From Candidatus Zixiibacteriota bacterium (lineage in GTDB: Bacteria > Zixibacteria > MSB-5A5 > UBA10806 > 4484-95): a stretch of 17,698 nt of DNA. The stretch covers positions 17,076 through 34,773 of the forward strand of contig JAOZPT010000024.1 of assembly GCA_029932605.1 (NCBI GenBank), written 5' to 3'. The position numbers and the translations under genes are program-made. Shown here piece by piece: positions 2,994-17,588 of this stretch (position 1 is its first letter; the number at the start of each line of letters is the position of its first letter). The notes under the pieces are model-generated. The model ran no database searches. It was given only the letters and a program-made list of their open reading frames with translations, and was not told where the DNA came from.

Positions 2994-3371
2994 ATGAAAT
3001 GTTATTTTCAGGGTGTTACCCGAGAGGAGAATAACGAAGTTAAATTCAATGGCTATGTCAGTTTTACAATTCCTGAAATGGGTATAAAATTCAGGGGTCA
3101 GTTTAAGGGTTCATCAGATGAGTGCGAATATGCAAGCCTTTTAGCCCTTCTGGAGTTTATCGAGCTCAACGCCCATCTTTTCAAAGATAGAAGGATAGAG
3201 ATATTTGGCAACAACTTCAAGGTTGTCAGCCAGGTTAATTCAGAGATGTCACCAACACACGAACTCGAACCTTTCTGTGCTATGGCCCAGGGTTATAAAA
3301 AGAAAATTCCATATACACTGAACTGGATACCCACCGATGAAAATATGGCCCAGGACGGCGTAGATATATAA
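2994..3371 (+). CDS. RNase HI-fold protein, probably catalytically degenerate
   Basis: Strong SD AAGGAGG upstream. The motif order matches type-1 RNase H: YFQG (cf. YxDG), SSDECEYASLLALLE (cf. TNNEAEYxALIxGLE), IEIFGNNFKVVSQVN (cf. vxGDSxLVxxQvxG), NWIPTDENMAQD (cf. WIPRExNxxAD). Confidence 0.75.
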   Translation: MKCYFQGVTREENNEVKFNGYVSFTIPEMGIKFRGQFKGSSDECEYASLLALLEFIELNAHLFKDRRIEIFGNNFKVVSQVNSEMSPTHELEPFCAMAQGYKKKIPYTLNWIPTDENMAQDGVDI

Positions 3372-3473: not shown

Positions 3474-3566
3474 GAAATAGATTTGTATAAAATCAATCGG
3501 GGAGAGAAAGAGACTTTATAATAATTTATAGTTTTGTTTTTTGTTAATTTTAAAAAGGAGTCGTTG

Positions 3567-5837
3567 ATGTTTTCAAGGTTAATGTTAGCTTCAGTAATGC
3601 TATTAACTATCGTTCTTGTCCTCCCGGCAATGCCCTCTGAGAATCCGATGCTGGTGAGGATTGATTTAGTTGATAAAACAGATATATCCCGTTTAAGCCA
3701 GCTTCATTTTGATATACCATATGTGACTGAAAATTTTGCTGAAGCGGTTGTATATCCCGAGGACTTGGCCAAGCTCGACAAAGCCGGTTTACATTATCAG
3801 ATTGTCCATGAGGATCTGGTAAGCTTTTACCAAAGCCGCAACCCGATGAATTTAACTATGGGTGGGTTTCTGACTTTTCCGGAGATTCTCGATACTATTG
3901 ATGTCCTTCATGCAAACTTTCCTGATTTAGTCTCTGCCCGTGATTCCATAGGTGGCACCTGGGAGGGTAGAGGTTTATGGGTTTTTAAAATCTCGGATAA
4001 TGTCGATATCGATGAGGATGAGCCTGAGATTTTTTACAATTCTTTAATCCACGCCCGCGAGCCGGCCAGCTGGTCCTGGCAACTTCATTATATAAACTGG
4101 CTTTTGGAGAATTACGGTTCTGACTCTGTGGCTACCAACATAATCGATAACCGGGAATTATATTTCCTTCCCGTTTTCAATCCTGACGGTTATGAATATA
4201 ACCGTCAAACCAACCCCAACGGCGGTGGTATGTGGAGGAAGAACAGACGACCGTCACCTGCCGGTGTCGATTTGAACCGTAACTGGGGTTATATGTGGGG
4301 CTATGATAACAGCGGCTCATCGCCTTATCCGAACGATGAGACATATCGTGGCCCATCGGCTTTTTCTGAACCGGAGACCCAGGCGGTTAGAGATTTCATT
4401 ATCTCCAGAGATTTTCAGTTTATAGTAAATGCACACACATACGGTGATTATTTTCTATATTCCTGGGGTTATGATGATATTTATACTCCCGACCATCCCA
4501 TCTTTCTGGCTCTGGGTGATTCAGCCAATGCATTAACAGGTTATATTTACGGCACTCCCTGGGAGATTTTATACAATACTAATGGTGATGCCAATGACTG
4601 GCAGTATGGCGAGCAGATTGATAAGCCACTTATCTTTTGCACCGTTACAGAGTCAGGTAACCAATATGATGGTTTTTGGCCGTCGCTTAATCGTATTCCC
4701 CAGATAAACGCCCAGATGTTGCCGTTGGCTATATTCATGTCGCAAGTCGCCGGTAACATCAGATCACTTGCAGCGCCTTTACCGCCGGTATTAGACCCGA
4801 TTGGAGATATCGATACCGATACTTTTACAGTTAGCTGGAGCCACGAGGATGAGTATAATCCCGCGGTTGCCTTTGAACTTGTGGAGAAAACCGGTTACTC
4901 CAGAGTCACCGATGATTTTGAAAGTGGTGATGATAACTGGCTTCTCAATGGTTTTTACCTTCGCACCAACCGTTATCATTCGGCAAACCACAGCCTTTTT
5001 TCGGGCAGTCAGAACAATTACCACGGCAGTGCTATTTTGGCAGAAGCATTTACGGTTCAGGATGGCGATACATTGTTCTTTTACACCTGGTATGACATTG
5101 AAAGTGACTGGGATTATGCCTATGTGGAGCTTTCTACAGATGGTGGGCAAACATTTTTCACTATTGAGGGAAATATCACCACCAATTATGACCCCCACGG
5201 CAATAATCGTGGTAACGGTATAACCGGTTCATCAAATGGCTGGGTAGAGGCGATATTTCCTTTAGATGATTACGTTGATTCGGTGGTGATATTGAAGATT
5301 TCCTATAACACTGACAGCTATGTACTCGAGGAGGGCATGTATGTTGATGATATGTACCCTGTCAGCTTTTTTGAGCAAACACTTGTTATTTCATCTGACA
5401 TAACCGACAATTTTTACCTTATAGAGGGGCGTGAAAACGGGACTTATTATTATCAGGTTAAAGCCCGTGATGCTGAAGATCAGTGGTCAGTTTTTTCAAA
5501 TAGAGAGGTAGCCAATGTGGAGGTAGAGGTGCCGGTGAGAGAAATCCCGGGGATACCTACAGATTTCTCCTTAAAACAGAATTACCCGAACCCGTTCAAT
5601 TCACAAACCGAGATTTCCTTTTCGCTTGCCTCACCCGGATTTGTTGAACTTGAGATCTATGATATAACCGGCAAACGTGTATGCACTCTTATTAAAGCCG
5701 TAAAGAAAGCCGGTAACTATCAGGTGGTCTGGAATGGTTGTAACGACCGGGGGGATGATGTAACCAGCGGGATTTATCTTTATAAATTATGCTCATATGG
5801 TAAGTCGTTAACAAGGAAAATGATACTTATAAGATAA
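3567..5837 (+). CDS. Secreted M14 zinc carboxypeptidase (carboxypeptidase T-like) with FN3 and jelly-roll domains and T9SS-type CTD
   Basis: SD AAGGAG before ATG 3567 and a signal peptide. Motifs HARE (Zn His/Glu), WRKNRR, GVDLNRNW, NAHTY (Zn His) and TESG (catalytic Glu). DIESDWDYAYVELSTDGG is an immune-inhibitor-A/MAM-like domain. [15 protein letters not shown]. Confidence 0.93.
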   Translation: MFSRLMLASVMLLTIVLVLPAMPSENPMLVRIDLVDKTDISRLSQLHFDIPYVTENFAEAVVYPEDLAKLDKAGLHYQIVHEDLVSFYQSRNPMNLTMGGFLTFPEILDTIDVLHANFPDLVSARDSIGGTWEGRGLWVFKISDNVDIDEDEPEIFYNSLIHAREPASWSWQLHYINWLLENYGSDSVATNIIDNRELYFLPVFNPDGYEYNRQTNPNGGGMWRKNRRPSPAGVDLNRNWGYMWGYDNSGSSPYPNDETYRGPSAFSEPETQAVRDFIISRDFQFIVNAHTYGDYFLYSWGYDDIYTPDHPIFLALGDSANALTGYIYGTPWEILYNTNGDANDWQYGEQIDKPLIFCTVTESGNQYDGFWPSLNRIPQINAQMLPLAIFMSQVAGNIRSLAAPLPPVLDPIGDIDTDTFTVSWSHEDEYNPAVAFELVEKTGYSRVTDDFESGDDNWLLNGFYLRTNRYHSANHSLFSGSQNNYHGSAILAEAFTVQDGDTLFFYTWYDIESDWDYAYVELSTDGGQTFFTIEGNITTNYDPHGNNRGNGITGSSNGWVEAIFPLDDYVDSVVILKISYNTDSYVLEEGMYVDDMYPVSFFEQTLVISSDITDNFYLIEGRENGTYYYQVKARDAEDQWSVFSNREVANVEVEVPVREIPGIPTDFSLKQNYPNPFNSQTEISFSLASPGFVELEIYDITGKRVCTLIKAVKKAGNYQVVWNGCNDRGDDVTSGIYLYKLCSYGKSLTRKMILIR

Positions 5838-5865
5838 AAAACGAACTTGCTGTTTGGGAGGTTTT

Positions 5866-7845
5866 ATGAATAGGTTGGCAATAACGTTGGTTGTGCTTAT
5901 GGGGGTGATGTTTGTCTATGCTACACCGCCCTATAAGGGAAATTACGACCTTTTGCGTAATAAAGAACCGTTGAAAAATAACTTTGCTAATGAAGGTTTA
6001 GCCTTGTTTGACTCAACTCATACCTATGATGTCAGCCACTATACCATAAGGCTTGACTTGGATGAGGAGAATAACACCATTGATGTCGGTCACATCACTA
6101 TTGAAGGGACAGCTGTGGTCGATATCGATACTCTCGAAATTCACTTTATCGGTATGACTGTTGACTCAGTGAAAATTGACGGTGAATCTACCACTTTTCA
6201 AAGACATACCGGCAGGCTTTGGGTTTATACTCCCTCTCTGGAGGGGGGGCAATCTTTTTATGCCGATGTGTATTACCACGGTCATCCGCTGACTGGCATG
6301 TTTTTTACCTATACGCGTTATGGTGAAGACCACACATATACTTCCGTAGAACCTTCCAATGCCAGGTACTGGTTTCCCTGTTATGATGAACCCTGGGATA
6401 AAGCTACCAGTGAACTATATTGCACTGTAGGACCTGATAGATATGTGGTCTCTAATGGCAAACTTATAGAGATAATCGATGAAGGTGATGATAGATACAC
6501 ATTCCACTGGCAGGAGGTTTATCCTATTGCTACATACCTTATTTCGATAAGCGTTGCTCGTTATACTATCATTACGGATTATGCCTATGTAGGTGATGAT
6601 ACTTTGCCAGTGATTTATTATTGTTACCCCCAGGATTCAGCCTGGTGTGCTTATGATTTTGGCAATACCCCGGATATGATAGAGTTTTATTCTGATATTG
6701 TTGTTCCCTATGGTTTCATATCGGAAAAATATGGTCAGGCCCAGGCGGCTATTTTTAACGGTTGGGGAGCAATGGAGCATCAGACAGCAACCACTTTCGG
6801 GCATAATCTTATTGATGGTAACAGAAGTTTTGAATGGATCGTCGCCCATGAACTTTCCCATATGTGGTTTGGGGACTTGGTAACGCTTGCCGACTGGCGG
6901 CATATCTGGCTTAACGAGGGGTTTGCAGTATATTTTGATGCCTTATATACAGAGTATAAATACGGCTATGAGGCGTTTCAAAACCGGTTGGTACAATTTG
7001 CCCAGTCATACTTTAATGAAGACAACTATATTCGTTACCCGATTTTCGACCCGCCTCCTGGATACCTGTTTGGAACGGTAGAATACGAAAAAGCGGCGTT
7101 GGTTTTGCACATGCTCCGCCGACTGCTTGGTGACGATGATTTCTTTTCCGCAATCGTCGATTATGTCAATGAGTTTTCCTATAGCAATGCAAGCACCGAT
7201 GAGCTTCAAGAACACTTTGAAAACTATTACGGTGACCTCGATTGGTTTTTTGAACAATGGATTTATCAGGCTGGTCATCCTGAATATCTCTGGACATGGT
7301 ATGCTGTTCCTGATAGTGAACATTTTGCCCTTAATATAACGATCTCTCAAGTTCAGGATAACGCTCCAATATTCACCATGCCAATTACCTTCGAGGTTGA
7401 GTTTCCGGGGCATGATACTACATTTGTTCTGTGGAATTTTCAGCAGACTCAATCATACACGTTTTATTTTGACGATGAGCCTGTCCAGGTCTATTTTGAC
7501 CCCCAAAATGACCTTCTAAAAGAAGTGGAGTTCTATGTTGGTGTCGATTCGGAGGAGATTTTACCGGCATCATTTTCGCTTTATCAAAATTATCCTAATC
7601 CTTTTAATTCCTCAACTGATTTTAAATTTGTTTTAGATGGAAAGGGTTTAGCTGAGCTTGAGATATATGATATCACTGGCAGGCTGGTTAAGACTCTCTT
7701 TTCGGGTGTGGTTAAGGCTGGTATTTACAATATCACCTGGGATGGAACCGACAATGATGATAATCATGTCTCTTCGGGGACGTACATTTACCGATTGCGG
7801 ACAAATTATAACTCGGTTGCCAGGAAGATGAGCCTGATAAAGTAG
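5866..7845 (+). CDS. Secreted M1 family zinc aminopeptidase with T9SS-type CTD
   Basis: SD GGGAGG before ATG 5866 and a signal peptide. Motifs ARYWFPC, GAMEH, HELSH...WLNEGFA (HEXXH-X18-E) and [27 protein letters not shown]. Confidence 0.94.
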   Translation: MNRLAITLVVLMGVMFVYATPPYKGNYDLLRNKEPLKNNFANEGLALFDSTHTYDVSHYTIRLDLDEENNTIDVGHITIEGTAVVDIDTLEIHFIGMTVDSVKIDGESTTFQRHTGRLWVYTPSLEGGQSFYADVYYHGHPLTGMFFTYTRYGEDHTYTSVEPSNARYWFPCYDEPWDKATSELYCTVGPDRYVVSNGKLIEIIDEGDDRYTFHWQEVYPIATYLISISVARYTIITDYAYVGDDTLPVIYYCYPQDSAWCAYDFGNTPDMIEFYSDIVVPYGFISEKYGQAQAAIFNGWGAMEHQTATTFGHNLIDGNRSFEWIVAHELSHMWFGDLVTLADWRHIWLNEGFAVYFDALYTEYKYGYEAFQNRLVQFAQSYFNEDNYIRYPIFDPPPGYLFGTVEYEKAALVLHMLRRLLGDDDFFSAIVDYVNEFSYSNASTDELQEHFENYYGDLDWFFEQWIYQAGHPEYLWTWYAVPDSEHFALNITISQVQDNAPIFTMPITFEVEFPGHDTTFVLWNFQQTQSYTFYFDDEPVQVYFDPQNDLLKEVEFYVGVDSEEILPASFSLYQNYPNPFNSSTDFKFVLDGKGLAELEIYDITGRLVKTLFSGVVKAGIYNITWDGTDNDDNHVSSGTYIYRLRTNYNSVARKMSLIK

Positions 7846-7976
7846 TTTTATATAACCTGATCAGGCAATTTATATGGTTTTTTGAGGTTTAACAGAGAAA
7901 AATAAAACGTGGTTATCGAATTAACTTAACCGCATCTTAATTTGGAATATTTCATTTTTATAAGTTTTTGGGAAAA

Positions 7977-8951
7977 ATGGGGTTGATAGCAAAAATAAAG
8001 AGGTATTACCTGTTTTTTGGGCCAGAAGAATATCTTAAGACCAAAAGAATCAAATCCTTGATAAGCGCTGTGGTTGAAAAAGGGTATGAGGACTTTGACT
8101 GTAATTATTTTGAGGGGCGTGGCCTTGATGCAACCGTTTTAGTAAACGCTGCCTCATCACCACCATCGGGGTCTCCTTTGCGTGTTGTCGTGTTGCGTAA
8201 TCTCGATAAAGTATCACCGAGAGGGTTAAATTTAATTGAAAGATTTATCGATTCAATCCCCGATTATACAACATTGATAATGACCTCTGAGAAAATAGAT
8301 AGACGGAAGAAGATTTTTAAAACTCTTTACAAGGATGAAAAAGCCTGCGTTAGATTTAACCTGCCTACACCAAGAAAAGCGGTTGAGTTTATCGCTGAAT
8401 CTGCTAAACAGCTTAATATTAGCATTGAACCGGAGGCGATCAATTACCTGGTGGAGACTATAGGTCCTGATGTTGGCAGGTTGGACCAGGAATTAACTAA
8501 GCTGGCGTTGTATGTTGGTCCTAAGGCGACTATACGAAAAGATGATGTTGCTTTGTTATGCGGAGCTGGTAGTATCGGTACGGTTTTTGACCTCCCCCAA
8601 AAAATCGTGTCCGGAGATGCCAAAGGTTCTTTGGTTCTCTTAAACAGCTTATTATCAGCCAAGCAGTCTGAGGGCAGGATACTTTTTCGAATCAAGGATT
8701 ATTTTCTTAAGTTAAATACCGTTAAAGCATTAGATATGTCTGCATGGGTATTAAGAAAGAAATACGGTATGCTTGAAAAAACTGCTGTGAATATATGCCA
8801 GACAGCTAAGAGACTTTCAGAGATATGTATAATCAATTGCCTTCACCATACATATCAATGCGAGATAAGTTTAAAATCTGCCGGTTTAAAAAAGGATATA
8901 GTCCTGTTTGACCTTATTTCCAGGCTTGTGCTGGAGGTTAAAGAGGAATAA
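7977..8951 (+). CDS. holA: DNA polymerase III delta subunit
   Basis: N-terminal YLFFGPEEYL, FDCNYFEG, RVVVLRNLD, EKIDRRKK, QELTKLALY, helical C-terminal clamp-loader domain, about 325 aa. Start ATG 7977 or TTG 7968. Confidence 0.88.
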   Translation: MGLIAKIKRYYLFFGPEEYLKTKRIKSLISAVVEKGYEDFDCNYFEGRGLDATVLVNAASSPPSGSPLRVVVLRNLDKVSPRGLNLIERFIDSIPDYTTLIMTSEKIDRRKKIFKTLYKDEKACVRFNLPTPRKAVEFIAESAKQLNISIEPEAINYLVETIGPDVGRLDQELTKLALYVGPKATIRKDDVALLCGAGSIGTVFDLPQKIVSGDAKGSLVLLNSLLSAKQSEGRILFRIKDYFLKLNTVKALDMSAWVLRKKYGMLEKTAVNICQTAKRLSEICIINCLHHTYQCEISLKSAGLKKDIVLFDLISRLVLEVKEE

Positions 8952-8984
8952 ATTTAACATTTAACTGTATTATTTATAGGGCAG

Positions 8985-9575
8985 ATGGATCCTGAGAGAA
9001 AAGACGAAGACCTGCAGTTAATTGAGCAGGTTTTAGCTGGTGATATAAAAGTATTTGAAAAGTTAGTCGAGAGGTATCAGAAGAAGATTTACTTTTTAGT
9101 ATTAAGGATGACTAAAAATCATGATATAGCAGATGAGCTTGCCCAGGAAAGCTTTGTCAAAGCTTATATGTCCTTGTCCAGTTTTCAAAAAGGGAAAAGC
9201 TTCTATACCTGGCTTCACCGGATAACAGTCAATCTGGTGCTTAATTACCTTAAACATGAAGGCTTTACAGTATCATTGGATAGCCCTGATGGCAAAATTT
9301 ACCTTGAAAATATTCCTTCAAGCCCCGATCAACTGAAAGATCTGATCGACCAGGACCAGATGGAAGTTTTTCATCGTGCTCTGGACGAGCTTCCTGCTGT
9401 TCAGAAAGTCGTATTCATATTGAAGACATATGATGATTTTTCATACGAGAAAATAGCTGAGGTTATGGATTGCTCAGTTGGTACTGTGATGTCTCGGTTG
9501 TTTCGGGCAAGGAGTAAGCTTAGGAAAGCTTTAAAGGATCATGAAAAGGAAAAATATGATAAGTTGCAAAAATAG
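8985..9575 (+). CDS. ECF sigma factor (RpoE/SigW-like)
   Basis: Region 2: FEKLVERYQKKIY...ADELAQESFVKAY...SFYTWLHRITVN. Region 4: SYEKIAEVMDCSVGTVMSRLFRAR. 196 aa. Confidence 0.95.
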   Translation: MDPERKDEDLQLIEQVLAGDIKVFEKLVERYQKKIYFLVLRMTKNHDIADELAQESFVKAYMSLSSFQKGKSFYTWLHRITVNLVLNYLKHEGFTVSLDSPDGKIYLENIPSSPDQLKDLIDQDQMEVFHRALDELPAVQKVVFILKTYDDFSYEKIAEVMDCSVGTVMSRLFRARSKLRKALKDHEKEKYDKLQK

Positions 9576-10512
9576 AAGGTTGATAGGTCCTTACCTTGAC
9601 GGACAGCTTGGGGAATGCCGTTGGCTGGATGAACATATTTGTGAATGTTCGGAATGTTTGGCGGAGTATGAATCGATCCAGCGGTTTAAGTATCTGGTAA
9701 GGCAGCTTGATTTTTCACCACCTGAGAGTTTTTACTGGAAAAATTTCCCCTCCCGAGTATCGGCACGGATTGCAACTCGGCAAAGCCAGAGATTTCTTGC
9801 TCGCTCAAGATTGATGGGGTTGGGAAAGAAATTTGTTCTTCGCATTTTAACTCCTCTGATGATTGCGGTAGTCGCTGTTTTTGTTTTAAGAATGATTTAT
9901 CATGAAAATAGGTATCCTGAGAAACCTCTCTCGATACATGTCGGTGACAAGGTTATTTCTCCCGATGATTATCCTGATGTTTCTGTTGGCTCTGCTGATG
10001 AGCTGATATCTTCAGGTGATATCCCTGATGATGCCTTGCAACAATCGGAGTCCTTACCTGTTATCGATATGTTGCCCATCAAGCCCAACGATGAATCATC
10101 ACGGGCTATTGTAATTGCTGACAAGTTTTCTGTAGATTTCGAGTATGGCTTAGACAGCATTGCGCTTAAAATTTTGAATGATGATTATCGACAGATTGGT
10201 TTAAAGCGGGATAACCTTGTTGGGATGGATTTTAATTTAATTGACAATTACGGTTTAAACCGGTTAACGAGTTTCAGCTCTGACTGTTTGATCAGATACC
10301 AGATACTTGCAGGTTTCAATTCAAGTGTGATACCGATATCCTCGTATAAAAAGGAGGCGAGTAAATTCTTTGCTCCAAAAACATCGCTTTATTCAAATGT
10401 ATACAACCAGAAAGTGTCTTCATCCTGGGGGCTTGCCAGTGGTGGCGAAAAATATGATTTGGAGAAATTGCGTCGTTTGATGCTTGAGCTTGACCTCTCA
10501 AGAGAGAAATAA
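9556..10512 (+). CDS. Zinc-binding (ZAS) transmembrane anti-sigma factor
   Basis: Overlaps the end of the sigma gene. N-terminal C...YLDGQL...HICECSEC (HxxxCxxC), one TM segment (ILTPLMIAVVAVFVL), and about 200 aa of unrecognised extracytoplasmic region. Start ATG 9556 (after AAGGA) or 9541. Confidence 0.85.
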   Translation: MISCKNRRLIGPYLDGQLGECRWLDEHICECSECLAEYESIQRFKYLVRQLDFSPPESFYWKNFPSRVSARIATRQSQRFLARSRLMGLGKKFVLRILTPLMIAVVAVFVLRMIYHENRYPEKPLSIHVGDKVISPDDYPDVSVGSADELISSGDIPDDALQQSESLPVIDMLPIKPNDESSRAIVIADKFSVDFEYGLDSIALKILNDDYRQIGLKRDNLVGMDFNLIDNYGLNRLTSFSSDCLIRYQILAGFNSSVIPISSYKKEASKFFAPKTSLYSNVYNQKVSSSWGLASGGEKYDLEKLRRLMLELDLSREK

Positions 10513-10570
10513 CTTTAAGTTAAAATTACATATATCATAAATATAGCGCTCAAAATAATTTTTTTATCGT

Positions 10571-10599
10571 TTGCATTATTATTTAGAAATGTTTATATT
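10571..10599 (+). promoter_or_regulatory. Sigma70-type promoter candidate for the PGA operon
   Basis: TTGCAT (10571-10576), 17-nt spacer, TATATT (10594-10599), upstream of capB. Confidence 0.5.
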
Positions 10600-10641: not shown

Positions 10642-11814
10642 ATGTGGCTCGTTTTTTTGTTAGTTTTGGTTTTAGTAATATACGGTATATTTGAATATCA
10701 ACGGCATCGTTATTATATCAAGAGAATTCCGGTTCGCATCCATGTAAATGGCACTCGTGGTAAATCCTCGGTGACCCGTTTGATTGGCGGTGGATTGAAG
10801 GGTGGTGGGAAGAAGGTTTTTATAAAGACAACCGGAACCGGTCCACGCACTATTGATGTCAAAAATGTCGAGGAGCCGATTTACCGTGTGGGTCGTGCTA
10901 ATGTCATCGAACAGCTGAGAATCACTCGCCAGGCCTTTTTTGATAAGGCTGATTTTTTTGTGGTCGAATGTATGGCGCTTCAACCGGACCTCCAAATACT
11001 AACCGAACACCAGATGATACGTTCACAGGTAGGGGTAATTACCAACATCAGGGAGGACCATCTTGATGTTATGGGGCCAACTCTTGAAGATGTAGCTGAA
11101 TCGTTATGCAATTCGATTCCCCGAAATGGCCTACTATTTACGACCGAAAAGAGATTTCTGGATGTAATCAAGAGACGAGCATCACAAATAGGAACAAAGG
11201 TCAAGTATGTTGATTCCGGAAATATCACGGTTGAGGATATGAATGGTTTTTCATATCTTGAACATATTAGTAATGTAGCATTGTCTTTAGCGGTATGTAG
11301 TCATTTCGGTGTGGATAAAAAATCAGCCCTTGAGGGGATGTATGCCATTAATCCTGACCCTGGTGTTTTACGCATGTACTCGGTGGACATCGATGGTAAA
11401 TCTATTGAATTCGTGAATGCTTTTGCGGCAAATGACCCGGAAAGCTACAAAGCTATCTGGGAGATGCTGGATATTCACAGGAATTCTCAGAAGAAGTTGA
11501 TAGTTTTGGTAAATTCAAGGCGTGACCGTATCCAGAGGGCTGAACAACTTGGCGAGTTTATCGCAAAAGAACTTGAAGCGGATTTTTTCGTAATCAGTGG
11601 TGAATATACTCATCCGCTGGTTCACAAAGCTATTAAATGTGGTTTGCCGTCGGAAATGATCAAGGACCTAGGTGGACATACGGTAAGCGAGATTTTTGAT
11701 TTTATTGCTAAACTTACTGTAGAAAAATCAATGGTTGTCGGGATAGGGAATATAGTAGGGCTTGGTGAAAAGATAGTAAGACATTTTGAGAGCAAAGGGA
11801 GGATGGTTGCCTGA
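10642..11814 (+). CDS. capB: Poly-gamma-glutamate synthase subunit CapB/PgsB (Mur/FolC-type amide ligase)
   Basis: N-terminal TM. Motifs RIHVNGTRGKSSVTRLI (P-loop), KTTGT, ANVIEQ, VECMALQP, ITNIREDHLDVMGPT, NAFAANDPES and GIGNIVG. Confidence 0.95.
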   Translation: MWLVFLLVLVLVIYGIFEYQRHRYYIKRIPVRIHVNGTRGKSSVTRLIGGGLKGGGKKVFIKTTGTGPRTIDVKNVEEPIYRVGRANVIEQLRITRQAFFDKADFFVVECMALQPDLQILTEHQMIRSQVGVITNIREDHLDVMGPTLEDVAESLCNSIPRNGLLFTTEKRFLDVIKRRASQIGTKVKYVDSGNITVEDMNGFSYLEHISNVALSLAVCSHFGVDKKSALEGMYAINPDPGVLRMYSVDIDGKSIEFVNAFAANDPESYKAIWEMLDIHRNSQKKLIVLVNSRRDRIQRAEQLGEFIAKELEADFFVISGEYTHPLVHKAIKCGLPSEMIKDLGGHTVSEIFDFIAKLTVEKSMVVGIGNIVGLGEKIVRHFESKGRMVA

Positions 11815-12271
11815 ATCGATATTAGTAATGCAGGCTATCGGTCTTGGTCTGGTGGTAAGTCTCGTTTTCTCAGAGACTCTGGGTTTGGCAGCTGGTGGTA
11901 TGGTTGTCCCTGGTTATATTGCGTTGATGATTCATCAACCTTTAAGGATAATAGGGACTATCATCGTGGCGCTTCTAACCTTTTTTATTGTCAAAGTGTT
12001 ATCGAATTATATATTCATTTACGGCAGGCGCCGCACGGTGTTGATCATTCTAGTTGGCTTTTTAATTGGTGCGGCTTCACGCGAGTTTTTTGTAATCACC
12101 CCATCGGGTCTGACTATTGAGTTTCAGGCGATAGGATATATCATTCCAGGTCTTATCGCCAACTGGATGGAACGACAGGGAGTGGTACAAACCATCACCA
12201 TGATGTTGGTCGCCGGTGTTCTTGTCAGGATGCTTCTTATGATATTTACCGGCGGGGAAGTGATTCTATGA
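11807..12271 (+). CDS. capC: Poly-gamma-glutamate biosynthesis membrane protein CapC/PgsC
   Basis: Hydrophobic, about 150 aa. Motifs GLVVSLVFSETLGLAAGGMVVPGYIAL, IYGRRR and IGYIIPGLIANWMERQG. Overlaps the capB stop. Start uncertain: TTG 11807 or ATG 11828. Confidence 0.93.
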   Translation: MPESILVMQAIGLGLVVSLVFSETLGLAAGGMVVPGYIALMIHQPLRIIGTIIVALLTFFIVKVLSNYIFIYGRRRTVLIILVGFLIGAASREFFVITPSGLTIEFQAIGYIIPGLIANWMERQGVVQTITMMLVAGVLVRMLLMIFTGGEVIL

Positions 12272-13404
12272 GGCAGAGAGTAACCAAACCGTCATACTAT
12301 TTGCTTTCTTTTTTAGCCTTGTTATCGTTATTTTTGTTTTACTTGGCGGAGAAATCTCAAACCCCACGTAAGCGAGCATATTACGACCAGAAGGTCGAGG
12401 CTGCTCGGATAGCCAAGAGGGCTCAGGAGGTAATTAAAAATGAGGTCGTCAGTCGTGGTTACGTTATCGATGTTCAAAACGATCCCAACCTGACAGGGCT
12501 TATCGGCCCTCAGTATTCGCTTATTACCACCGACCGTGGTTATATTCGTGACAAGTTGATATCTACCAATCCTAATTGTGCAGCGGTATTGGTGGACCTT
12601 TTCCACAGGGCTAAGTTGAAACCGGGGGATCTGGTGGCAGTGACATTTACCGGTTCTTTCCCGGCTATGAATATCGCGGTATTGTCTGCCTGCAAGGTAA
12701 TGGGTTTAGAGCCGGTTATTATATCATCAGTTGGAGCGGCTACCTGGGGTGCCACCTGGGATGAATTTAACTGGCTGGACATGGAAAGTGCTCTTGTGAA
12801 TAATGGCATCTGGTCTTATAAATCAGTTGCGGCTTCATTGGGTGGTGGAAATGACCACGGGCGAGGGCTATCTCCAAAAGGACGGAAACTTCTTAAAGAG
12901 TCTATAAAGAGAAACAATGTAGAACTTATTTCATCTATTAGTGAGGAATACCCCGCCGGTTCGCTTGAGGCCAATATAGAAAAAAGGATTGAGATTTTCG
13001 ATCGTGAAAAGGGTGAAAAAGAATATAAGATGGTTGTAAACGTTGGTGGTGGATTGGCAGCAGTTGGCTCATCACAAAACGGGAGATTGATTCCACCCGG
13101 TTACAACAGGTCATTATATGATCGAGAATTTCCGGCACGGGGCGTTATAAACATCCTTGCCGAAAGACGGATACCGGTTATCCATTTATTGCAACTCAGC
13201 CGTTTTGCCGAGAAATACAACCTGCCTGTTGAGGTTTCGCCAGAACCTGAAATTGGAGAAGGGCCTGTATATTTCAAGGAACAATTCTCGATTGTCTCAA
13301 CTTTAATATACACTATAATACTGATGATTGCATTGATTGGAGCGATCCGGATAGACCTGAGGTACTATATATACAAAAATAAACATCTGTTTGTACGAAA
13401 ATAA
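12268..13404 (+). CDS. pgsW: Poly-gamma-glutamate system protein PgsW
   Basis: ATGA overlap with capC, and N- and C-terminal TM segments. Motifs DPNLTGLIG...ITTDRG...STNP, TGSFPAMNIAV, SSVGAATWGA, NWLDME, SLGGGND and NVGGG match, from recall, the family found after capBC outside Bacillus. Confidence 0.88.
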   Translation: MRQRVTKPSYYLLSFLALLSLFLFYLAEKSQTPRKRAYYDQKVEAARIAKRAQEVIKNEVVSRGYVIDVQNDPNLTGLIGPQYSLITTDRGYIRDKLISTNPNCAAVLVDLFHRAKLKPGDLVAVTFTGSFPAMNIAVLSACKVMGLEPVIISSVGAATWGATWDEFNWLDMESALVNNGIWSYKSVAASLGGGNDHGRGLSPKGRKLLKESIKRNNVELISSISEEYPAGSLEANIEKRIEIFDREKGEKEYKMVVNVGGGLAAVGSSQNGRLIPPGYNRSLYDREFPARGVINILAERRIPVIHLLQLSRFAEKYNLPVEVSPEPEIGEGPVYFKEQFSIVSTLIYTIILMIALIGAIRIDLRYYIYKNKHLFVRK

Positions 13405-13418
13405 TCAGCGAGGGATAT

Positions 13419-14309
13419 ATGAATTGCAAGCGGGTAATATATATTATATTTTTCATTTTTCTTATGGCATCAGCTGTTGGGGCGTCATCCTCTAGAAAAA
13501 CATTTACGCCTTTTGGCAGGCCTAAAACGATCAAGTTCGATTCCGGTAATGGTAAGACCTATACCTATTATTGTTTGGTCAAGGGGAAGTCAATGGGTTT
13601 TGCGGTGGAGGGTCCCGTTAAGGTTGATGTTAGAAGTCGTGCTGGTCTTCCCGGCCAGAATGTCATTGCCGAATACCAGATTCAGGTCTGGGAGGGTGAA
13701 TATCTTGTCAAGGCCGATAAGTTCAGAACTAAATACGTAGAAGCAAAATTCATAGATAGTGATCTGGTGCCAGCCGCATATAGGAATACTCAATTTGATG
13801 TTCCTCTTGGTATCCACAATTACCGGCTATGGCTGGTATCGGATAATATTGATACGGTTCTTATAAGGTTATACAAATCTATTCCTACCGAGGGTGAACC
13901 GGTTAAAGTGATTATGCGACCACTTGAATATAACAGGAAAGTCCATCTTTATTCTAAAAAGAACCAGACACCATATTATTTAATTGATAGACAGAGTGGC
14001 CTTAAGTTGAAGGTGACTGGACCAATTGAACTAATAATCCGGGCTCGGGCTAATTTTACAGAGGATATGGATGGTCGTATTGGCTATACGATTTCGGTAT
14101 ACGAGGGGCAAAAAGAAATTGAGACCCTTTCGGCCACCACTTCGAAGTCACTGACAATGGCTTATCAGGACTATACCGGCGTTGTGCCTTCAAGGCCTAC
14201 GCAATTTATCATCAAGGTGCCGGAGGGGACACATATCTATAATTTCCTTTTGAAAAAGTCAGCGGCTGAAACGGTGAGTATCCGTTTCTCGTTACCCAAA
14301 CAAGATTAA
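13419..14309 (+). CDS. Uncharacterised secreted/periplasmic basic protein with two tandem homologous beta-rich domains
   Basis: SD GAGGG, 14 nt after pgsW. Sec-type signal peptide (MNCKRVIYIIFFIFLMASAVGA). Internal duplication visible in the translation. Confidence 0.82.
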   Translation: MNCKRVIYIIFFIFLMASAVGASSSRKTFTPFGRPKTIKFDSGNGKTYTYYCLVKGKSMGFAVEGPVKVDVRSRAGLPGQNVIAEYQIQVWEGEYLVKADKFRTKYVEAKFIDSDLVPAAYRNTQFDVPLGIHNYRLWLVSDNIDTVLIRLYKSIPTEGEPVKVIMRPLEYNRKVHLYSKKNQTPYYLIDRQSGLKLKVTGPIELIIRARANFTEDMDGRIGYTISVYEGQKEIETLSATTSKSLTMAYQDYTGVVPSRPTQFIIKVPEGTHIYNFLLKKSAAETVSIRFSLPKQD

Positions 14310-14317
14310 TCATTAAA

Positions 14318-15397
14318 ATGACAATTATCAGTAAAAGCGATTCGGGTATAATTTCTGAATTTTTTTTGATGCTGGTACTTGCGCTTGTCATTGTCTTGAC
14401 AATGCCGGCGGTTGGTGAACCGGTGTATATTGGCAAAATCAGGAGCTGGGATTTTAGTTTTAACCTTACAACAACATACGATGATAATATCTTAAGATAT
14501 TCCGATTCTGACCTTGATTTGATGGATGACCCAACTGCCCCGCAGAATAAGTATGGAATAGAGTCAAAGGATGATTTTATAATTATCCCTGAGATAGATA
14601 TTGTATATAAAACAAGATTCACCGGCCATAGTCTTCATCTGGGGTTCAAGACGACTTATTATTATTATGTGGAAAACGACATTAAAAGACATTTTCGCTA
14701 CCAGGGGCGGTTGCGCCAATATTTCCAGAGAGGGTTTTATTTACAGGCGTCGTTGGTGTATTTCCCCGATTACTATTACCGCAACAGTTATGTATCATCA
14801 CAGGGCTACCATGAAGCCAAATTTGATAAGATCTATGGTAAATTTAAATTGGCGGTCCCTATATTTGATTCATTCAAAAGCAACCTCTACTATACATATT
14901 CAATAAAGGACTTCAATCAGTTGTTCGATGAAAGGGATTTAACCTCTCATGAACTTGAGATAGAGGCTATTTTTCGACCGGTTGATTACTGGAAGAGTTG
15001 GGCCAATTACAAATTCTGCACCGCTAACAGCGCAGGTGCCGATAATCCCGATTATCCTCGTGACACATCATATGATTCTTTTTTGTTTACCCTTGGTATG
15101 AGGTTTTATTTAAAAAGCTTTTCAGATAAAAGGATGGAGCTTGCGGGCAGAGTTTCTTATAAAGTTGTATGGTTTCAGACCAGCAAGGTCACCACTGAGG
15201 ATAGTTATCGCCTTGGTCGAAAGGATGACCGCTGGACGATGAATATTTCAGTTAAACAGAAAGTTGTAGACAACTTTTCTGTTGGACTTAATTTGAAAAA
15301 GGTTAAAAACCTGGTTGATTTACCGGCCAGTTACTTGGAAAAATATCTGGAATATTCATCAAATTCCGTTTATTTTATCTTGTATTACAAGTTATAA
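14318..15397 (+). CDS. Predicted outer-membrane beta-barrel protein
   Basis: Begins 8 nt after the previous gene and has a hydrophobic signal segment. First strand ends TTYDDNI. Many amphipathic Tyr/Phe-rich strands and a C-terminal beta-signal-like SVYFILYYKL. Start could also be ATG 14369. Confidence 0.72.
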   Translation: MTIISKSDSGIISEFFLMLVLALVIVLTMPAVGEPVYIGKIRSWDFSFNLTTTYDDNILRYSDSDLDLMDDPTAPQNKYGIESKDDFIIIPEIDIVYKTRFTGHSLHLGFKTTYYYYVENDIKRHFRYQGRLRQYFQRGFYLQASLVYFPDYYYRNSYVSSQGYHEAKFDKIYGKFKLAVPIFDSFKSNLYYTYSIKDFNQLFDERDLTSHELEIEAIFRPVDYWKSWANYKFCTANSAGADNPDYPRDTSYDSFLFTLGMRFYLKSFSDKRMELAGRVSYKVVWFQTSKVTTEDSYRLGRKDDRWTMNISVKQKVVDNFSVGLNLKKVKNLVDLPASYLEKYLEYSSNSVYFILYYKL

Positions 15398-15430: not shown

Positions 15431-16144
15431 TTGAGTTTTATCGTTTTTTGTTGTTTATTTTTTGTATCAGTTATGCCAAGTTTTTCAGACAAACCTCCAG
15501 TTCCGGATTCGGCCGATACCTTTTCTGGTAAACGGCTAAGAATGGTTTCCACCCAGATTGAAAGTCGTGGAGTTAAGGATGAAAATGTTTTAAAGGCGAT
15601 GAGGACGGTTCCACGACATCTGTTTGTTCCTGAAAATATCCGGGCCTACTCCTACGAGGATGAACCTTTACCTATCGGTTTCGGTCAAACAATCAGTCAA
15701 CCATATATCGTAGCCTTAATGACAGAACTTCTGGAGCTGAAACCCAACTCTAAAGTGCTGGAAATAGGAACTGGTTCTGGATATCAGGCGGCTGTTCTGG
15801 CCGAGCTGTGCGATTCGGTTAGCTCGATCGAAATTATCTGCGAGTTGGCGGAACGAGCTGATTCCACACTCAAGGCGTTAGGGTACAATGTTGATGTTCG
15901 CTGTGGTGATGGCTACAGGGGATGGCCAGAAAAAGCGCCGTTTGATGCCATTGTTGTTACGGCTGCTCCCGACGAGGTTCCAGAACCGCTGATTGAACAG
16001 CTGGCCGAGGGAGGCAGGATGGTGATACCGGTGGGAACATACCATCAAGAGTTGAAATTAATAAGAAAGATCGAAGGTAAGGTTAAAGAGATGAATATCA
16101 TACCGGTTCGCTTTGTACCGATGACCGGTGAGTCAGACAATTGA
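15431..16144 (+). CDS. pcm: Protein-L-isoaspartate O-methyltransferase with hydrophobic N-terminal extension
   Basis: Motifs VPRHLFVP, PLPIGFGQTISQPYIV, VLEIGTGSGYQAAVL, GDGYRGWPEKAPFDAIVVTAA, GGRMVIPVG and VRFVPM. SD GAGAGG lies 8 nt before TTG 15431, and an in-frame stop at 15416 bounds the start. Confidence 0.95.
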   Translation: MSFIVFCCLFFVSVMPSFSDKPPVPDSADTFSGKRLRMVSTQIESRGVKDENVLKAMRTVPRHLFVPENIRAYSYEDEPLPIGFGQTISQPYIVALMTELLELKPNSKVLEIGTGSGYQAAVLAELCDSVSSIEIICELAERADSTLKALGYNVDVRCGDGYRGWPEKAPFDAIVVTAAPDEVPEPLIEQLAEGGRMVIPVGTYHQELKLIRKIEGKVKEMNIIPVRFVPMTGESDN

Positions 16145-16170
16145 TTTATAACTTAAAGGTGTAATTAAAT

Positions 16171-16197
16171 CGTAACATAAATTGTAAATGTCCGTAA
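16171..16197 (+). promoter_or_regulatory. ECF (SigW-like) promoter candidate upstream of pspC
   Basis: CGTAAC (16171-16176), 16-nt spacer, CGTAA (16193-16197). Compare B. subtilis SigW TGAAAC-N16-CGTA. Confidence 0.62.
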
Positions 16198-16240
16198 TTG
16201 AGATGTAATAGAAATATTCTTTGAAAAATGGAGGTGGCTT

Positions 16241-16672
16241 ATGCCTCGGAAAAAACTGTATCGTTCCCGTGAGAATTCTATGCTGGGTGGTGTCTGTGCC
16301 GGTTTAGCGGATTATTTTGATGTTGACGCTTCGCTTATAAGATTGGCCACTGTTGTTTTATTTTTCGCTGCCGGAACAGGCATACTTGCTTATATCATCG
16401 CCTGGATTATTATACCCCAAGAACCCCTTGATAAAAATGCAGCGACTACTGACGTTAGTGGCGGAAACCAAATGGAAATAACGGAGGGTTCGGACAAGTC
16501 AAAATTTGTAATCGGTATCGTTTTGATAGTACTTGGCTTTTTATTTTTAATGAGCACTTTAAATGTCTGGACCTGGTTCTCGTTTTTCAGGTTATGGCCC
16601 ATATTACTGATAGTGGTTGGTATAGTAGTAATTTTAAGAGGCTTGGAAAGAGGGGATGCCAGTGAAGATTAG
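16241..16672 (+). CDS. pspC: PspC-domain membrane protein with C-terminal LiaI/LiaF-like TM hairpin
   Basis: SD GGAGG. KKLYRSRENSMLGGVCAGLADYFDVDASLIRL...AYIIAWIIIP is the PspC domain. It is followed by GIVLIVLG...LWPILLIVVG (DUF5668-like). Confidence 0.9.
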   Translation: MPRKKLYRSRENSMLGGVCAGLADYFDVDASLIRLATVVLFFAAGTGILAYIIAWIIIPQEPLDKNAATTDVSGGNQMEITEGSDKSKFVIGIVLIVLGFLFLMSTLNVWTWFSFFRLWPILLIVVGIVVILRGLERGDASED

Positions 16673-17588
16673 CTCGATACGCTGGGGTATTATCCTTTTA
16701 GGAATAGGTTTAGTTTTCCTAGCGATTAATTTCGGTTACCTTGACTATTTTGTCTGGATGAGATTATTGTCATTGTGGCCGGTGCTGGTTATCGCGATAG
16801 GCCTAGAGCTGATTTTTAAAAGAACCAAGCTTCAATTTATGGCTTTATTATCACCCTTATTGCTGGCCTTGACATTTTTATATGTTTCCTCTGTTGACTG
16901 GCAGAGTGATGGATATCATTTTTATTATCGCTGGGATAATAAAGATTATGAACAGCATGTTTATCATTACAGTCTTGAGCGGGAGGATGATATTGACAAC
17001 CTTGAGGTTGATATTGATATGGGGCCCGGTTATTTCCGGGTAAGTTCCAGCGACGATGAATTGTTTGTTGGTGATTTTGAGTATCATCATGAAAAGCCAA
17101 GATGCAGGTTCGATAAATATGAGAATAAGGGCAAAATCTTTATCAAAACGAGAGACCGTGGAGGTTATTCTATTTTTAGAGGATCAAAGTATAAAAATGA
17201 TGCCAGGATTTTTATCGCGGATTATCTGCCTTTGGATATGAAGATTGATGTCGCTGCCGCTAGGTTGGAGCTTGACCTTTCCGAGCTTATAGTCAAAAAG
17301 CTTAAACTGGATACGGGAGCAGGAGATATCAAGATAAAGCTTGGTTCCCGATCGGATAAGGTCTTTTTACGGATAGACTCCGGTGCCTCGAGGATAAAGA
17401 TTATTGTCCCAGAGGAAATGGGGCTTAAGATAGATTCGGATATCGCTCTCTCATCAACAAATTTTCGCAGGATGGGTTTGGAAAAACACAGGGGCTATTA
17501 CCGTTCGGAAAATTTCTCGACCGCTGATTGCCGGGCGTTAATAGATATCGATTCCGGTGTTTCACAGATAAAAATCGACTATTATTGA
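16656..17588 (+). CDS. LiaF/LiaG-like envelope-stress protein (N-terminal DUF5668-like TMs, C-terminal toast-rack beta-solenoid-like domain)
   Basis: Overlaps pspC. WGIILLGIG...LWPVLVIAIGLEL TM region, followed by repeated beta motifs (IDMGPG, IDVAAA, LDTGAG, IDSGAS, IDSGVS) and IIVPEE. Confidence 0.8.
   Translation: MPVKISSIRWGIILLGIGLVFLAINFGYLDYFVWMRLLSLWPVLVIAIGLELIFKRTKLQFMALLSPLLLALTFLYVSSVDWQSDGYHFYYRWDNKDYEQHVYHYSLEREDDIDNLEVDIDMGPGYFRVSSSDDELFVGDFEYHHEKPRCRFDKYENKGKIFIKTRDRGGYSIFRGSKYKNDARIFIADYLPLDMKIDVAAARLELDLSELIVKKLKLDTGAGDIKIKLGSRSDKVFLRIDSGASRIKIIVPEEMGLKIDSDIALSSTNFRRMGLEKHRGYYRSENFSTADCRALIDIDSGVSQIKIDYY

Follow-up and report, generated by a model that had tools for sequence, protein, structure and literature searches.

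A block of five genes at positions 10642 to 15397 of a 17,698-nucleotide stretch of DNA from Candidatus Zixiibacteriota bacterium (GenBank assembly GCA_029932605.1, contig JAOZPT010000024.1, positions 17,076 to 34,773 of the forward strand; the whole stretch is called the window below) probably constitutes a single line for the synthesis and export of poly-gamma-glutamate (PGA). The block starts with pgsB, pgsC and pgsW and ends with genes for a basic protein with two predicted jelly-roll domains, here called the adaptor, and for a predicted outer-membrane β-barrel, which together would form a dedicated outer-membrane export module. The identities of the genes, their linkage, their co-occurrence in other genomes, their fusions and their joint loss were observed directly. 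That the adaptor and barrel genes are part of the PGA system in the first place is very probable; that they transport PGA is what we infer.

The five open reading frames (ORFs) are all on the plus strand and their junctions in the window ORF list are −8, −4, +14 and +8 nt, which agrees with the coordinates and overlaps of the original prediction. Its identification of the first three genes also held, since each protein exceeds the cut-off of its NCBIfam model. The PGA synthase of the Mur-ligase type encoded by pgsB/capB (10642..11814, 390 aa) matches TIGR04012 with 439 bits (cut-off 222.7) and has one N-terminal hydrophobic segment and the P-loop GTRGKS at residue 37. The membrane subunit encoded by pgsC/capC (11807..12271, 154 aa) matches TIGR04011 with 133 bits (cut-off 96.45) as well as PF14102 and contains four hydrophobic segments; its TTG start overlaps the pgsB stop by 8 nt, and this start at 11807 is consistent with the homologues, the earliest start of the ORF caller being 11786. 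The third protein (12268..13404, 378 aa) matches TIGR04332, 'poly-gamma-glutamate system protein', with 315 bits (cut-off 100); pgsW, the symbol used in the original prediction, is presumably that of the TIGR04332 gene. Hydropathy reveals hydrophobic segments in PgsW at residues 9-27 and 342-360, and from these two flanking membrane segments the middle domain of about 310 residues is probably periplasmic. A profile search yielded no solved-structure relative of PgsW. The adaptor gene (13419..14309, 296 aa) and the barrel gene (14318..15397, 359 aa) follow.

Each of the five genes is present as a single copy in the source genome, which belongs to the Zixibacteria, is 99.96% complete and encodes a glutamate racemase. 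Eight Omp85 matches identify the organism as a diderm. In the whole genome there was no match to CapA (PF09587) or to gamma-glutamyltranspeptidase/CapD (PF01019), so that the absence of capA and capD noted for the window extends to the genome. The gaps within the block, at most 14 nt, leave no room for the small peptide CapE/PgsE, although no search for CapE itself was made. Those close homologues that are named come from Zixibacteria.

Both adaptor and barrel are without matches in Pfam or NCBIfam at an E value of 0.1, and their description rests on predicted structures, which fit the tandem-domain protein and the β-barrel originally proposed. The AlphaFold2 model of the adaptor (pLDDT 87) consists of a signal helix followed by two all-beta jelly-roll β-sandwich domains; the N-terminus resembles a signal peptide and has no lipobox. 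The two halves are homologous (hhalign repeat probability 99.95%), and an arginine is conserved at the equivalent position of both repeats, R74 and R210. The protein is basic (pI 9.5), as is the family, whose median pI is 9.65 and of whose 125 members 103 exceed pI 9; the family comprises 361 clusters at 50% identity, and a plasmid search did not reveal a relative. The fold matches are carbohydrate-binding modules of the jelly-roll type with Z scores of 8-10, tied among themselves, among them the cellulose synthase chain 5eiy_B (Z 9.0, rmsd 3.0, 109 residues aligned). The shared predicted jelly-roll fold is by itself no proof of function. Among the proteins P0113, P0147, P0232 and P0234 there are adaptors with a third repeat (429-446 aa) and a single PgsW-adaptor fusion of 683 aa. 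PgsW-adaptor fusions were set aside: the ORF at locus L218 is likely a frameshift, pgsB being split there as well, and P0234 is a single protein whose reality is uncertain.

The barrel has a signal-peptide-like N-terminus and 14 strands in the AlphaFold2 model (pLDDT 84, pTM 0.78). Among solved folds it matches CymA best (Z 24.9, rmsd 3.7, 284 residues aligned) and OmpG next (Z 21.8), with PgaA (Z 16.2) and BcsC (Z 15.0) further down; at 6-10% identity the resemblance to CymA and OmpG mostly reflects strand number. Wzi, AlgE and Slam structures did not occur among the fold matches listed, which excludes none of them, and a sequence search against solved structures gave only weak generic porin matches (E 0.0024 or worse). 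The profile of 43 barrel family members aligned over 289 columns (94.8%, E 4.9e-8) with a BBP2_2 barrel whose gene neighbours a Poly_export gene, while the window barrel (P0005) does not match PF10082 (BBP2_2) and only two of the 43 members do so weakly (best 3.2e-4). Among the structural neighbours in the Atlas, unnamed clusters come first, followed by BBP2_2 clusters (TM 0.79/0.81 for a cluster that is 43% BBP2_2) and SlipAM clusters. The barrel is probably related, at a distance, to the BBP2 barrels of polysaccharide export. A rough topology and strand alternation on the predicted model were used to estimate the charge of the lumen, which is net positive in 32 of the 43 members, the window barrel having 24 K/R versus 11 D/E. 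Prediction of an adaptor-barrel complex from paired 35-row alignments gave a score of 0.00, which is evidence neither way. In one genome (G125, L042:5783-6950) the barrel gene is split into frames of 236 and 192 aa in an otherwise intact block, either a pseudogene or an assembly error.

Support for a functional unit comes from the distribution of the genes within the Zixibacteria. Of 201 genomes 35 were positive for TIGR04332, and in 28 of these 35 the adaptor gene lies directly downstream (27 of 34 loci that were read, plus G152 by its coordinates). In the complete set of 285 genomes TIGR04332 occurred in 50 and a strong barrel match (E<1e-20) in 35, all of them within the 50, whereas none of the 235 TIGR04332-negative genomes had a strong barrel match. 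Weak matches (E above ~1e-6) are not contained in these counts; there were five in Zixibacteria, two of which are deletion scars. The scars occur in one genus, in which the block of genome G257 (L163) is intact while in G089 (L050:5868-6243) and G258 (L164:4137-4974) the start of pgsB adjoins a remnant of the barrel gene, its final ~40 codons. The pgsB remnants differ in length, ~78 codons in G089 and ~228 codons in G258, and the breakpoints differ accordingly. The segment from pgsB to the barrel gene has been lost in one piece, by one deletion or two; a contiguous deletion is joint loss and not by itself joint function.

Fifteen TIGR04332-positive Zixibacteria lack a strong barrel match. In two a contig ends inside the block, and the remaining 13 come from two families. 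Twelve of the 13 possess instead a locus with the order deacylase-DUF6305-gamma-glutamyltransferase-pgsB-pgsC-pgsW (assigned by Pfam scan in three, by gene order and size in four and by a local profile in five); one locus is cut by a contig end. Loci of this gamma-glutamyltransferase (GGT) type (L032, L033, L034, L035, L036, L039, L040, L172-L176; also L111, L127) have the gene order DctM transporter, AstE-like deacylase, DUF6305, gamma-glutamyltransferase, pgsB-pgsC-pgsW and are common to Zixibacteria, Clostridium pascui and Thermotogota. An adaptor or barrel gene was never seen beside them; none of the loci read combined features of the barrel type with those of the GGT type.

Outside the Zixibacteria the same two genes are again syntenic with capBC-pgsW and co-occur with TIGR04332 across phyla, so that the refuting case named in the original prediction, a lack of synteny in other genomes, did not arise. 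A narrow PgsW alignment, biased toward the barrel-type clade, provided 80 GTDB pgsW loci (80 kept of 85 confirmed), among which adaptor and barrel were both adjacent in 48, the adaptor only in six, the barrel only in one and neither in 20; five were cut by contig ends. The titles of the records with the full block are Bacteroidota, Ignavibacteria, Eisenbacteria, Fermentibacteria, WOR-3, TA06, Cloacimonadota, Nitrospirota and Marinimicrobia. Not all of these titles can be relied on: three 'Ignavibacteria' rows are placed inside the Zixibacteria in the PgsW tree, a quick tree with a midpoint root. The genes flanking the block vary between phyla while the five-gene core is constant.

The association also persists where linkage is lost. 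Whole-genome searches (37-42 genomes) uncovered unlinked barrel genes in two of the six adaptor-only genomes and in four of the 20 genomes with neither gene at the locus; three Cloacimonadales retain the barrel gene unlinked. In the 20-genome phylum to which G216 belongs, the same two genomes hold the barrel and TIGR04332, on separate loci; pgsC is present in both and pgsB exceeds the cut-off in one. In G216 and G234 pgsB, pgsC, pgsW and the barrel gene are dispersed (L144, L154-L156, L158, L167-L170), and the barrel gene is flanked by genes that by eye resemble lgt and nucleoside-salvage genes. In 151 WOR-3 genomes the barrel (all matches, weak ones included) occurred in 64, TIGR04332 in 61 and both in 60; of the four barrel-only genomes, two have weak matches, one has a fusion situated where a contig starts, and one is a real exception. 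The adaptor gene precedes the barrel gene in 29 of the 30 best WOR-3 loci. In 381 Bacteroidota genomes, searched with the barrel profile only, the five strong matches, of which one is the seed, each belong to a complete five-gene block; six weak matches lay outside.

A direct connection between adaptor and barrel is provided by gene fusions. In six ORFs from Cloacimonadota and WOR-3 (L093, L095, L209, L213, L214, L215) the adaptor is fused to the N-terminus of the barrel; the fusion boundaries were checked for three of the six. Provided that the barrel has the usual topology, this places the adaptor in the periplasm.

These data suggest the following sequence of events. PgsB, the cytoplasmic ATP-dependent ligase, and PgsC in the inner membrane would polymerise glutamate and move the chain across the inner membrane, the role established for the Bacillus members of these equivalog families. 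PgsW, with an anchor at either end, would then take over the chain on the periplasmic side and so substitute for PgsA/CapA, as its topology and the gene order suggest. The basic tandem jelly-roll adaptor would bind the polyanion by its conserved arginines and hand the chain over at the periplasmic end of the barrel, as suggested by its fold, its charge and the fusions in relatives that join it to the N-terminus of the barrel. The chain would leave the cell through the 14-stranded barrel, the conserved outer loops serving as a gate. Binding of the polymer, its transport and the direction of transport are deduced in this model, as are a continuous trans-envelope complex and export via the barrel.

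The arrangement can be compared with known systems. Like PgsBCA(E)/CapBCADE of Bacillus it contains PgsB and PgsC equivalogs above cut-off in the same order, but CapA and CapD are absent from the genome, TIGR04332 takes the third place, two envelope genes are added and the host is a diderm. The families of the NCBIfam pgsB-pgsC-TIGR04332 cassette are all present and adjacent, whereas the family model names no partner and adaptor and barrel belong to no Pfam or NCBIfam family. The parallel drawn in the original prediction with AlgK/AlgE, PgaA and BcsC, the last taken here together with BcsB, stands as far as function is concerned: an inner-membrane synthase, a periplasmic partner and an outer-membrane barrel are encoded in one operon, the partner is sometimes fused to the N-terminus of the barrel, and PgaA, BcsC and the cellulose synthase chain appear among the fold matches. 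It fails in the details, since the polymer is here a polyamide made by a Mur-type ligase instead of a glycosyltransferase synthase and a pair of β-sandwiches takes the place of the scaffold, with no match to a tetratricopeptide repeat (TPR) family in the five proteins. With the OPX/β-barrel translocon (EpsX/EpsY; BBP2_2) the system shares the distant full-length profile similarity described above; EpsX, however, has 18 strands, OPX, Wzx and Wzy genes are lacking here, and neither the five proteins nor those of their neighbours that were scanned gave a Poly_export match.

Several observations, including some taken up with the alternative explanations below, weigh against an export module. Production of PGA by these organisms is itself presumed from their gene content. 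The barrels behind the barrel profile were themselves located beside pgsW, related genomes are not independent, and most of the genomes are incomplete metagenome-assembled genomes. For the exit barrels of known synthase-dependent systems PMC9601211 gives 16-18 strands, compared with the 14 predicted here. Of the two WOR-3 genomes G341 and G353, one has a barrel (1e-25) with neither TIGR04332 nor an adjacent pgs gene, and one, the sole TIGR04332-only genome, has pgsBCW with no barrel match. Four genomes contain the adaptor without a strong barrel match and five the barrel without an adaptor match; that some lineages have lost one or the other speaks against a rigid, obligate complex spanning the envelope. 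Diderms with a PGA locus also manage without the module: a whole-genome search of seven GGT-type Zixibacteria yielded no adaptor and no strong barrel match in any of them (one weak barrel match, 2.9e-4).

Likewise, 16 of the 80 pgsW loci lie in genomes without a strong match to adaptor or barrel, and 15 of the 16 belong to diderm groups (eight Polyangia, one labelled Pseudomonadota, two Lacipirellula, two Aminicenantes and two Thermotogota, the sixteenth being a Clostridium). Five of them (Clostridium, Aminicenantes, Thermotogota) are outside the barrel-bearing group of the tree, and three of these have GGT or deacylase genes nearby; the other eleven (Polyangia, Lacipirellula and the Pseudomonadota label) fall together in a clade supported at 100%, with no genes of this kind in their neighbourhood (L092, L094, L096-L098, L103, L104, L108, L109, L113, L114). 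In five Polyangia a gene for a lipoprotein-like protein of 466-489 aa, with no Pfam family, is located 5' of pgsB and is a candidate for an alternative export part. The proposal that the module follows the diderm envelope holds in one respect, in that Clostridium pascui, the only monoderm locus encountered, lacks both genes in its genome; it does not hold for the GGT-type loci and the clade of Myxococcota and Planctomycetota, which lack the module. Nor are the characterised systems all from monoderms, as had been assumed: in the accessible text of PMC3815933, PMC4928254 and PMC4497714, Fusobacterium nucleatum is a Gram-negative PGA producer.

The alternative that survives best, in our view an unlikely one, is a surface anchor of the Wzi type: PGA would leave the cell by another way, and the outer face of the barrel, with or without the adaptor, would retain the capsule, the job of CapD elsewhere. 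Of 30 conserved barrel positions 28 are in the outer half or the outer loops of the predicted model and are acidic as often as basic, a pattern that would fit surface binding as well as gating. Mutual exclusion of barrel-type and GGT-type loci is what would be seen with alternative anchors, and Wzi is a barrel needed for anchoring and not for export, as stated in the available part of PMC9601211. Furthermore, from E. coli with pgsBCA alone PGA was purified from the supernatant (PMC3815934, from the portion accessible), which indicates that a dedicated pore is not strictly needed. Arguing for export and against an anchor are the fusions, which set the adaptor at the periplasmic N-terminus of the barrel, where a polymer-binding partner suits passage better than tethering, the export barrels as the nearest named relatives, and the estimated positive charge of the lumen. 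The Wzi barrel has 18 strands and the window barrel model 14.

Still less probable is a translocon of the Slam type (type XI), in which the barrel would bring the adaptor or an LVIVD lipoprotein to the cell surface, where they would bind or process PGA. Slam barrels have 14 strands, as predicted here, and the Atlas neighbours include SlipAM clusters (PF04575; score 0.97, TM 0.67-0.78). An LVIVD lipoprotein gene lies directly 3' of the barrel gene in 13 of 40 loci with room for it (nine more end too soon) and stays with the barrel gene where the latter has left the pgs genes, in G201 and G205; LVIVD loci (L060, L061, L067, L068, L100, L102, L105, L120-L123, L125, L126, L143, L145) occur in several phyla. 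A gene for a gingipain-like C25 peptidase is often found 5' of pgsB (L061, L128), and both the lipoprotein and the peptidase are possible further parts of the system. However, the window barrel does not match PF04575 and only one of 43 family members does so weakly (E 0.0016), the barrel model contains no TPR domain, and the adaptor, which lacks a lipobox, is fused to the barrel in the six ORFs. No lipoprotein gene adjoins the barrel gene in the window, and an LVIVD gene after the barrel was not detected there or in 27 of the 40 loci, yet the barrel tracks TIGR04332 genome-wide.

CymA and OmpG, the nearest solved folds, are uptake pores. The barrel might accordingly be an uptake pore that, with the adaptor as a binding protein, recycles glutamate or PGA fragments for the synthase, and the DctM transporter and hydrolases of the GGT-type loci demonstrate that salvage functions can reside beside pgs genes elsewhere. 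This is very improbable, as the fold matches mostly reflect strand number, barrel-type loci are accompanied by neither a hydrolase nor an inner-membrane transporter, and the source genome has no gamma-glutamyltranspeptidase match. Hardly credible, finally, is that adaptor and barrel are unrelated envelope genes hitch-hiking in a conserved operon: pcm, pspC and a LiaF-like gene likewise follow the block throughout the order of the window, and barrel or adaptor is absent from several pgsW genomes, but between phyla the flanks differ while the five-gene core persists, barrel and pgsW are retained together when unlinked, and the 235 TIGR04332-negative Zixibacteria all lack a strong barrel match.

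Regarding transcription, a sigma70-like site (10570..10599, plus strand, 9 of 12 consensus positions) in the 129-nt gap 5' of pgsB occupies a position that plausibly suits a promoter. The single promoter of the original prediction cannot be derived from it, because the window contains 59 such sites as compared with 47.7 ± 8.7 in shuffled sequences, which is chance level, and the site was discarded as evidence. The barrel gene is not followed by a called terminator-like site, so the transcript may extend into pcm, which starts 33 nt past the end of the barrel gene. Upstream of the block (7968-10512) are holA, an ECF sigma factor gene and an anti-sigma-like gene, and downstream (15431-17588) pcm, pspC and the LiaF-like gene; these envelope-stress surroundings are conserved across the order to which the window belongs. 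Farther upstream, four secreted-looking proteins (16-855, 894-2582, 3534-5837, 5854-7845), labelled by eye as LVIVD-repeat, subtilisin-like, carboxypeptidase-like and aminopeptidase-like, have a common C-terminal tail beginning with QNYPNPFN, which we take to be a type IX/FlgD-like sorting tail. The only match of a 125-aa ORF (2994-3371) is to ribonuclease HI and is weak (E 3e-4, far under the cut-off).

Loci for PGA are present in most phyla, according to the accessible part of PMC5542703, and in the available text of a 2026 review (PMC13721041) PGA export is incompletely understood. Studies of Ace Lake report PGA genes in such phyla and, in their accessible parts, list only CapB, CapC and CapA (PMC8542988, PMC9324843). 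The literature searched names no machinery by which PGA crosses the diderm outer membrane, and a description of the adaptor and barrel genes was not found in it, most subscription papers being outside the reach of the search. The chances are about even that PgsW, the arginine-bearing adaptor and a 14-stranded barrel derived from polysaccharide-export barrels represent the first dedicated outer-membrane route for a non-ribosomal polyamide, distributed over many diderm phyla, and that pgsBCW systems are split into those whose product is exported (adaptor and barrel) and those whose product is retained in the periplasm or recycled (gamma-glutamyltransferase, deacylase, DUF6305, DctM). Adaptor and barrel, two new protein families, offer a concrete and testable candidate for this machinery and a marker that divides PGA loci into two types, and they may open a route to better release of PGA from Gram-negative production strains.

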